Of a stretch of DNA of 64,000 bases, positions 8,473-9,222 are shown in pieces (the first letter of the stretch is position 1; the number at the start of each line of letters is the position of its first letter). This stretch comes from Escherichia phage N2, in the sequence record ON645936.1, one strand, 5' to 3'. A model generated the notes under the pieces. It saw nothing but the letters and a program-made list of their open reading frames with translations, searched no databases and had not been told where the DNA came from. The translations under genes were made by a program, and so were the position numbers.

Positions 8473-8502
8473 ATAATATCACTACCCCATCTAAAAGTAA
8501 AC
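8473..8502 (-). promoter_or_regulatory. T4 early-type promoter (GTTTAC-N17/18-TATTAT), copy 1 of a repeated cassette
   Basis: Minus strand GTTTAC ttttagatggggtagtg ATATTAT; shares gatagggtaata(a/g)tatcac core with copies at 8854 and 9193. Confidence 0.6.
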
Positions 8503-8514
8503 TGTTTTTATAAA

Positions 8515-8823
8515 CTATTTTATTCCGCGTGATGCAATTGTATTCTGTCGTTTAGCACCAGTTTGTTTAAAGTCATGATTGTCGATTTGATCGGTACGAG
8601 CAACTCCGAATGATGATTTAATCTTAGCTTTAGATCCTTTAGTTATAGAAATAAACATCTCGGAAGCCCCTTTCTTAAAGTCCGAAGCAATTACTTCAAC
8701 ACCGTTCTTAGCAAGTGACTTCAGAATTGCCTCCGCGTACTCATCATCAAGACTCGCTTGAGTATTAATAACGAATGTCTTTGGCGCAGCCGCTTCATTG
8801 ATAAATTCTTTAAATGTTTTCAT
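8515..8823 (-). CDS. Internal head protein with capsid-targeting sequence (novel IP variant)
   Basis: 102 aa; N-terminus MKTFKEFINEA resembles the T4 IP capsid-targeting sequence (prohead-protease site after E-A); basic mature part. Confidence 0.7.
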   Translation of the reverse strand: MKTFKEFINEAAAPKTFVINTQASLDDEYAEAILKSLAKNGVEVIASDFKKGASEMFISITKGSKAKIKSSFGVARTDQIDNHDFKQTGAKRQNTIASRGIK

Positions 8824-8853
8824 TTTATTTTCCTAATTAATTTTGATGAGATA

Positions 8854-8883
8854 ATAGTACCACAACCCTATTTAAAAGTAAAC
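8854..8883 (-). promoter_or_regulatory. T4 early-type promoter, copy 2 of repeated cassette
   Basis: Minus strand GTTTAC ttttaaatagggttgtg GTACTAT, immediately upstream of IP gene at 8823. Confidence 0.6.
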
Positions 8884-9156
8884 TCATTTTAAATAAATTG
8901 CGTATTTTTTATAACCCGCTGACTCATGACGAAGACCCTTATCATTAGCAAAACGCTCAATGTTGTTAATTTGATTCTGGTCAAGTTCAGAGATGTCAAA
9001 CACGAAAAAGTTACGTTTGTTACCAACTGTTACATAGTCAGTTAAATCAATATCATATAGGTAATTGATGTCAGCAATCAAAGTCTTGACAGCTTTGCTA
9101 ATTTTTACTTTTTCGTTAAAAGTAGCTTCATTGATAAATTCTTTAAATGTTTTCAT
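8884..9156 (-). CDS. Internal head protein with capsid-targeting sequence (second novel IP variant)
   Basis: 90 aa from ATG at 9156 (GGAG RBS); same MKTFKEFINEA signal, then unrelated mature sequence. Confidence 0.7.
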   Translation of the reverse strand: MKTFKEFINEATFNEKVKISKAVKTLIADINYLYDIDLTDYVTVGNKRNFFVFDISELDQNQINNIERFANDKGLRHESAGYKKYAIYLK

Positions 9157-9192
9157 TTTATTCTCCAATCACCCATTTATTTTGATAGGGTA

Positions 9193-9222
9193 ATAGTATC
9201 ACAACTAAAACCCCGTGTAAAT
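9193..9222 (-). promoter_or_regulatory. T4 early-type promoter, copy 3 of repeated cassette
   Basis: Minus strand ATTTAC acggggttttagttgtga TACTAT upstream of IP gene at 9156. Confidence 0.55.

Follow-up and report, generated by a model that had tools for sequence, protein, structure and literature searches.

Internal Protein Genes Ip9 and Ip7 in the Hypervariable Locus of Escherichia Phage N2 and the Replacement of an Ip9 Leader

Introduction

The internal proteins (Ips) of T-even phages are the closest described counterparts of two adjacent genes, Ip9 and Ip7, of Escherichia phage N2 (sequence record ON645936.1), which lie in a 64,000-nucleotide stretch of its DNA, referred to below as the window. 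T4 Ip1, Ip2 and Ip3 are each a specific inhibitor of one GmrSD-type type IV restriction enzyme (PMC12373910): IPI/IPI* (PF11634) is injected and inhibits the GmrSD of E. coli CT596, and IPII and IPIII (Ip2 and Ip3), likewise injected, inhibit GmrSD(ECOR21) and GmrSD(ECOR17), respectively. Ten N-terminal residues of IPIII are enough for capsid targeting; positions 4 and 7 of this leader matter for targeting, and positions 8 and 10 for processing (PMC9026906). The protease gp21 cuts after the Glu of an L/I-X-E motif, and the leader has been put forward as a portable tag by which already existing proteins are drawn into the head (PMC9026906).

According to later papers and GenBank records, Ip7 and Ip9 were named by Repoila et al. 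1994. The recombination, or shuffling, model of the internal protein (IP) locus also came first from that work, as described in PMC2839356 and PMC4122927; our statements on it rest on the descriptions given in these later papers and records. Repeated elements of the IP locus were proposed to drive the shuffling of internal protein genes (Arbiol et al. 2010, PMC2839356; Comeau et al. 2014, PMC4122927).

Our analysis places both genes of phage N2 in this locus. We consider it probable that Ip9 and Ip7 are packaged by means of their leader, cut by gp21 and injected, most likely acting against host defence, and that the ip genes of the locus are shuffled by recombination. A publication of 1994 already covered the genes, their leader, the locus and the shuffling model, and work from 2010, 2014 and 2025 returned to them; the window therefore adds no new kind of object.

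Gene Identity and the Internal Protein Locus

A megablast search of positions 8200-9700 against phage genomes matched 640 records, nearly all of which were Tequatrovirus (T4-like coliphages). The closest record was Escherichia phage 132 (98.5% across the full query). These matches identify the window as part of a Tequatrovirus genome.

Ip7 (8515-8823, minus strand, 102 amino acids (aa)) was 100% identical to Ip7 of phage RB32; its identity to "internal head protein 7" of phage T2 was 99%, and homologues were present in 283 phage records. Ip9 (8884-9156, minus strand, 90 aa) was 92% identical to Ip9 of phage RB15, with values of 92-94% across RB15 and RB32. Both proteins matched PHROG "internal head protein" families over their full length (phrog_2667, 2e-41, for Ip7; phrog_7673, 1e-54, for Ip9). 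They belong by sequence to the described Ip families, and "internal head protein" is already annotated for both genes in several public records.

The initial annotation, made from the sequence alone, had reported two adjacent ORFs (open reading frames) that both begin with MKTFKEFINEA and had read them as T-even internal proteins with capsid-targeting leaders. The ORFs were confirmed and this reading was supported; the novelty that it implied was not, as both proteins are near-identical to described and named internal proteins, though those lack functional characterisation. The earlier reading was thus essentially right for an object that is already known and named.

The start of Ip9 depends on the gene call. 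A mechanical ORF call extends the gene to a TTG codon at 9168 (MENKMKTF...); the relatives start at the ATG at 9156. Similar N-terminal extensions, which would bury the leader, occur in some database entries for Ip9 relatives and are probably start-site miscalls.

The two genes are flanked upstream by 57B (9235-9690, minus strand), a member of the Acb1 anti-CBASS phosphodiesterase family (Pfam Acb1, 2.6e-60) whose position is kept in all relatives, and downstream by a tRNA.4 homologue (8258-8443, minus strand; phrog_1692, 6e-35), a hydrophobic protein of 61 aa with a conserved position in T4, T2, RB32 and G4498. The order 57B-Ip9-Ip7-tRNA.4 agrees with that of the relatives and identifies the region as the published hypervariable internal protein locus of T-even phages, carrying the known genes Ip9 and Ip7. 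The content of the 57B-tRNA.4 interval is polymorphic: it holds ipI in T4, Ip5-Ip7 in T2, Ip5-Ip9-Ip7 in RB32, Ip5-Ip9-Ip7-Ip8 in RB15 and Ip9-Ip7-Ip8 in G4498, and in the window Ip9-Ip7, with Ip5 and Ip8 missing. Compared with Ip7 and Ip9 of RB32, RB15 and T2, the window has the same genes in the same 57B-tRNA.4 locus, with Ip9 preceding Ip7 as in the relatives that carry both. It differs in lacking Ip5 and Ip8 and in the leader of Ip9, which is of the Ip7 type, MKTFKEFINEA, instead of the usual MKTYQEFI[S/A]EA.

Capsid-Targeting Leader and Predicted Processing

Both proteins start with about ten residues resembling the targeting sequence MKTYQEFIAE, with Phe at position 4 (as in T4 IPI) and Phe at position 7. 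The gp21 motif is present in both as I8-N9-E10 followed by Ala; the leader corresponds to residues 1-10, MKTFKEFINE, with cleavage by gp21 predicted after E10. The two prohead genes that a genome with T-even internal proteins should carry are both encoded within the window on the plus strand. These are the prohead protease gp21 (40512-41150; Pfam Peptidase_S77, 1.5e-111), the enzyme expected to remove the leaders, and the scaffolding core protein gp22 (41181-41990; Pfam T4_CASP, 1.5e-89), a component of the prohead core. Predicted mature Ip7 comprises 92 aa, with an isoelectric point (pI) of 9.65 and 15 Lys+Arg, and predicted mature Ip9 comprises 80 aa, with a pI of 8.17 and 12 Lys+Arg.

This architecture is close to that of the T4 proteins. 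IPI shares with Ip7 and Ip9 the genomic slot, the MKTFKEF start and the I-x-E motif followed by Ala, and its mature protein of 76 aa (pI 9.0) is similar in size and basicity; its propeptide, however, has 19 residues compared with 10 in Ip7 and Ip9. IPII and IPIII carry the 10-residue leader MKTYQEFIAE, which is cut after E10, and in this respect are built like Ip7 and Ip9, but their mature sequences are unrelated and their genes lie in the second IP locus.

A second I-x-E motif of Ip9, I55-S56-E57 (8986-8994), also fits the gp21 rule; in the predicted fold, it is flanked by a strand and a helix.

The literature searched contained no main-text treatment of Ip7 or Ip9 in a phage context, the sole mention being in the supplement of PMC12373910, and no report of their packaging, cleavage or injection was found there. 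We infer these steps, together with an anti-defence activity, by homology or precedent.

Leader Repeat and Recombination

The DNA around the two start codons is almost identical, as had been noticed initially. In both Ip7 (8792-8833) and Ip9 (9125-9166), the Shine-Dalgarno region, ATG and leader codons fall within a 42-nt direct repeat on the minus strand, the two copies of which agree at 41 of 42 positions. The chance expectation for such 42-nt pairs is about 2e-15 in 3 kb of the same composition. The record of RB32 already describes its Ip9 and Ip7 as "flanked by 43 bp direct repeat".

Comparison of the leaders between phages located the changes to Ip9. No difference (0/33) separated the Ip7 leader of the window from that of RB15, RB32 or G4498. 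In these three phages, the leader of Ip9 reads MKTYQEFI[S/A]EA and is encoded by ATGAAAACGTATCAAGAATTTATTKCTGAAGC; in the window it is of the Ip7 type. Between Ip9 of the window and Ip9 of G4498, 6 of 33 leader positions differed, versus 2 of 240 in the remainder of the gene (Fisher's test, p = 5e-5). Within a genome, the leaders of Ip9 and Ip7 differed at 1/33 positions in the window and at 7/33 in RB15, RB32 and G4498. As the differences from G4498 are concentrated in the leader, a short tract was therefore replaced in the lineage of the window. The replacement is specific to this lineage and of a kind that the published shuffling model predicts, and each of the two leader types is found in both the Ip7 and the Ip9 families.

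The recombination scar suggested by the initial annotation corresponds to this published model and gained support from the lineage-specific replacement. Our contribution here is a modest one, a clean natural case of leader replacement at nucleotide resolution.

The intergenic DNA points in the same direction. In six phages, the intergenic cassettes were mosaics of a few interchangeable modules for the -35 side, the spacer and the 5' untranslated region (5'UTR), and the borders of the array differences between phages fell in the promoter cassettes.

Early Promoter Cassettes and Transcription

The early promoter cassette is present three times within 760 bp, each time on the minus strand. The T4-type promoter of Ip9 (9193-9222) reads ATTTAC(A)-N17/18-TACTAT, with TG before the -10 box. 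That of Ip7 (8854-8883) reads GTTTAC-N18-TACTAT and begins right after the TGA stop codon of Ip9. The third copy (8473-8502), GTTTAC-N18-TATTAT, lies downstream of Ip7 and upstream of tRNA.4, and drives tRNA.4 and not an ip gene. The 30-nt cores of the Ip7 and tRNA.4 promoters were identical at 25/30 positions, and those of the Ip7 and Ip9 promoters at 18/30. The initial annotation had assigned each ip gene its own early promoter with an exact GTTTAC, inside a near-identical cassette of about 30 bp. The separate promoters stood, but Ip9 reads ATTTAC, near-identity holds for the Ip7/tRNA.4 pair and not for Ip7/Ip9, and there are three copies instead of two. Exact GTTTAC-N17/18-TAYTAT sites occurred four times in the window versus 0.08 expected, with two of them outside the IP locus.

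In the locus, the distance from a stop codon to the following -35 box is 0-12 nt. A search for terminators between the genes of the locus found none, and read-through transcription is likely because no terminator separates the genes. No late promoter was found in a search directly upstream of Ip7 or Ip9. The nearest upstream match to the T4 late-promoter box, TATAAATA (10288-10295, minus strand), is a motif match inside gene 1 and a possible source of late read-through transcripts.

Many copies of the cassette contain a 12-13-bp inverted repeat across the spacer, the -10 box and the start site (8462-8510, 8843-8891 and 9182-9230 in the window, as well as relatives), with arms that vary between copies (GATGAGGTA/TACCTCATC, GATGGGGTA/TACCCTATC and GATGATGGTG/TACTATCATC). 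In the Ip9 copy, the repeat GGGGT...ACCCT spans the -10 box, with a hairpin of -11.5 kcal/mol and a z-score of -2.3 for a 93-nt segment; in the tRNA.4 copy it measures 12 bp, at -16.1 kcal/mol. The repeat of the Ip7 copy is degenerate and its folding was no better than that of shuffles. Conservation was assessed in 18 distinct cassette copies from 7 phages against column shuffles, and pairing and covariation in these copies were no better than in the shuffles (78.7% versus 78.5% paired). A conserved hairpin in the promoter cassette was consequently dropped as a candidate, long inverted repeats being a property of many individual copies only.

The PeSL (promoter-early stem-loop) cassettes, mobile regulatory elements described earlier in T4-type phages (PMC2839356, PMC4122927), resemble this arrangement in that both have repeated strong early promoters flanking small variable ORFs and thereby offer homology for shuffling. 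The PST/T4 promoter consensus given in the PeSL papers, TTTACW-N17-TAYWAT, fits all three copies in the window, and an inverted repeat is present in two of the three (12 bp in the copy before tRNA.4, split in that before Ip9). However, the inverted repeat in the window overlaps the -10 box, whereas the stem-loop of PeSLs precedes the promoter; it is followed by no U-tract or terminator and lacks covariation support. The ip genes also have an additional, ip-specific patch of homology in their leader codons. The authors of the PeSL papers themselves term the elements of the IP locus analogues of PeSLs, not homologues.

Mature Domains and Their Relatives

Downstream of the leader, the two proteins have little in common with each other or with T4 IPI, as the initial annotation had stated. 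BLASTP gave no alignment between mature Ip7 and mature Ip9, and similarity of either protein to IPI ended with the leader. Neither matched a Pfam family, including IPI_T4 (PF11634), at E <= 0.1, or an NCBIfam family; no sequence relatives were found in the PDB, and no structural similarity to IPI was detected. The profile and structure check proposed for the mature parts thus yielded no informative sequence or fold relatives (Pfam, NCBIfam, PDB, AlphaFold2).

AlphaFold2 predicted an alpha-beta-beta-alpha-beta-beta sandwich for Ip9 with reasonable confidence (predicted local distance difference test, pLDDT, 78.6). For Ip7, it predicted a small beta-alpha-beta-beta core, with a pLDDT of 64 overall and about 84 for residues 15-60. 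The C-terminal tail of Ip7 (residues 76-102, 8515-8598; ...HDFKQTGAKRQNTIASRGIK) is basic, almost invariant in the family and predicted to be disordered (pLDDT < 50), and may be a tail that binds DNA or a target.

The domain of Ip9 was also found outside T4-like phages. In Kagunavirus siphophages, residues ~18-90 correspond to a stand-alone gene of 72 aa that has no leader and no in-frame upstream extension and is about 50% identical to Ip9 (phrog_7673, 3e-27). An example is Escherichia phage vB_EcoS_UTEC10 (positions 3004-3222 of its stretch), in which the homologue heads a run of small unknown ORFs diverging from the replication genes. In some Kuttervirus (Ackermannviridae), an Ip9-like domain forms the C-terminal ~60 residues of a 755-aa protein, as in Salmonella phage aagejoakim (positions 994-3261 of its stretch; phrog_7673, 2e-8). 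The C-terminus of this large protein is a variable, swappable module, because most of its homologues in Ackermannviridae align only over residues 1 to ~654-680. One homologue, in a Dickeya phage, is annotated "unknown structural protein", and the 755-aa carrier is possibly associated with the virion.

More distant T4-like versions of Ip9 have the leaders MKFNEFLTEA and MKSFKEYLTES, with the cleavage motif kept. A HMMER search of 1.84 billion representatives with the mature Ip9 domain yielded just 8 clusters at 50% identity; the family is small, and the same search gave no bacterial homologue that offers a functional lead.

The distribution of the domain fits the idea of the leader as a portable tag for pre-existing proteins, and the leaderless form in Kagunavirus argues that Ip9 acts in the cell and not as a building block of the capsid. 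Neither Kagunavirus nor Kuttervirus is known to carry DNA with glucosyl-hydroxymethylcytosine (glucosyl-hmC). This suggests, as a lead and not as a result, that the target of Ip9 is not specific to glucosyl-hmC DNA. That unrelated phage families carry the Ip9 domain leaderless or as part of a large fusion protein is a further modest addition to what was known and hints at where its target may be sought.

Neighbouring Genes and Related Loci

All genes around the locus (7847-10657) are on the minus strand. Upstream of 57B lie 57A (9690-9932) and gene 1, encoding a deoxynucleoside monophosphate kinase (9932-10657), and tRNA.3 (7847-8257) follows tRNA.4. The IP locus thus adjoins a known anti-defence gene, 57B/Acb1. 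In several RefSeq phage records, including T4 NC_000866, 57B is labelled "RNA ligase" despite its Acb1 match, and this label looks like a propagated annotation error.

A third ORF with a leader, similar to IPIII (MKTYQEFITEARVSAGK..., MKTYQEFITEARVSAGKLEAAINKK...), is cut by the window edge, with its 5' part at 1-253 on the minus strand. It belongs to the second IP locus.

Escherichia phage OLB35 carries a scrambled remnant between ipI and tRNA.4 (positions 2403-2734 of its stretch). A single ORF of 77 aa combines a tRNA.4-like 5' fragment, the middle of Ip7 and a C-terminus of the Ip9 type; it has no leader and is annotated "ip7 protein". This ORF appears to be debris of illegitimate recombination within the IP locus.

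Discussion

The following course of events would account for the features of the locus. Each ip gene would be transcribed from its own T4-type early promoter, with read-through from upstream, including a late promoter, also likely. The first 10 residues, MKTFKEFINE, would direct the protein to the capsid and into the gp22 prohead core, where cleavage by gp21 after Glu10 of I-N-E would leave mature proteins of ~9-10 kDa in the head together with the DNA. Injected with the DNA, these would take effect as soon as infection begins, most likely as inhibitors of host defence with narrow specificity; T4 Ip1, Ip2 and Ip3, which block one GmrSD-type enzyme each, are the precedent for such a role. The shared promoter and 5'UTR modules and the leader DNA would provide short patches of homology, at which recombination could insert, delete and swap ip genes between co-infecting phages.

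As to the target, Ip7 and/or Ip9 may, like Ip1-3, inhibit particular GmrSD enzymes that have so far gone unsampled, an explanation that we regard as possible but doubtful. All three characterised Ips act in this way with strict one-to-one specificity, and the diversity of GmrSD is very large (PMC12373910). The panel in that study comprised just 15 synthesised groups; apart from the three systems already known as Ip targets, 5 of these showed activity against T-even phages. In these tests, which partly cover the plating check proposed in the initial annotation, ip4-10, with ip7 and ip9 among them, gave no reproducible inhibition of the GmrSD variants, and an apparent effect of ip7 on CLS_011 failed to reproduce (Silas et al. 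2025, PMC12373910, Suppl. Fig. 9). IPI blocks a GmrSD, whereas the results for Ip7 and Ip9 were negative, and neither protein showed structural likeness to IPI or a match to its Pfam family. The homologues of the Ip9 domain in Kagunavirus and Kuttervirus, which are not known to carry glucosyl-hmC DNA, weigh against such a target as well.

A different view of Ip9 can be proposed tentatively. Its domain of ~72 residues may be a portable phage effector that is delivered in different ways, by leader and injection in T4-like phages, as a stand-alone protein expressed after entry in Kagunavirus and, in some Kuttervirus phages, as one of several alternative modules at the C-terminus of the large protein. 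It would then be directed at some general function or defence of enterobacteria and not at a type IV nuclease specific to glucosyl-hmC. A general target of this kind would explain the negative GmrSD screens.

It is unlikely that Ip7 and Ip9 are packaged chiefly as basic, lysine-rich counter-ions or organisers of DNA for packaging or ejection, with no specific host target. The basic character of both mature proteins, the nearly invariant basic and disordered tail predicted for Ip7, the contacts of lysines of T4 internal proteins with DNA phosphates seen by solid-state nuclear magnetic resonance (PMC3012670) and the GmrSD screens that yielded no target would all agree with such a role. However, Ip9 is only weakly basic, its domain occurs leaderless in Kagunavirus, and the three T4 Ips of known function are all specific enzyme inhibitors. 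Moreover, ip genes come and go in many combinations among near-identical phages, which suits an accessory function and not a structural need.

The view that the similarity of promoters and leaders reflects functional selection alone, for a strong early promoter and a targeting signal, and not the tracks of recombination, is still less probable. T4 early promoters are long and highly conserved, half of the four exact promoter sites lie outside the locus, and the leader peptide is functionally constrained. Selection on the peptide nevertheless leaves the identity of the two repeat copies at synonymous sites (41/42) unexplained. It also fails to explain why Ip9 of the window has an Ip7-type leader when near-identical Ip9 genes have MKTYQEFISEA (p = 5e-5), or why the array differences between phages have their borders in the cassettes.

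Finally, the two proteins are most improbable as ordinary early cytoplasmic proteins that stay unpackaged and carry the leader as a hitch-hiking remnant of recombination: both genes possess early promoters but lack a late one of their own, and the Ip9 domain works without a leader in other phages, but the leader is conserved at the protein level in divergent members, including positions 4, 7, 8 and 10, the variants MKFNEFLTEA and MKSFKEYLTES keep L/I-X-E, and the single copy that has lost its leader, in OLB35, is a scrambled remnant.

Packaged and injected inhibitors of host defence thus remain the preferred reading of Ip9 and Ip7, and their initial description as candidate injected anti-defence effectors of unknown specificity agrees with current knowledge (PMC12373910). 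Should Ip7 and Ip9 prove to be injected proteins with anti-defence activity, the short list of defences that have to be disarmed ahead of any phage gene expression would grow by their targets, and the two proteins could help to explain differences in host range among therapeutic T4-like phages.

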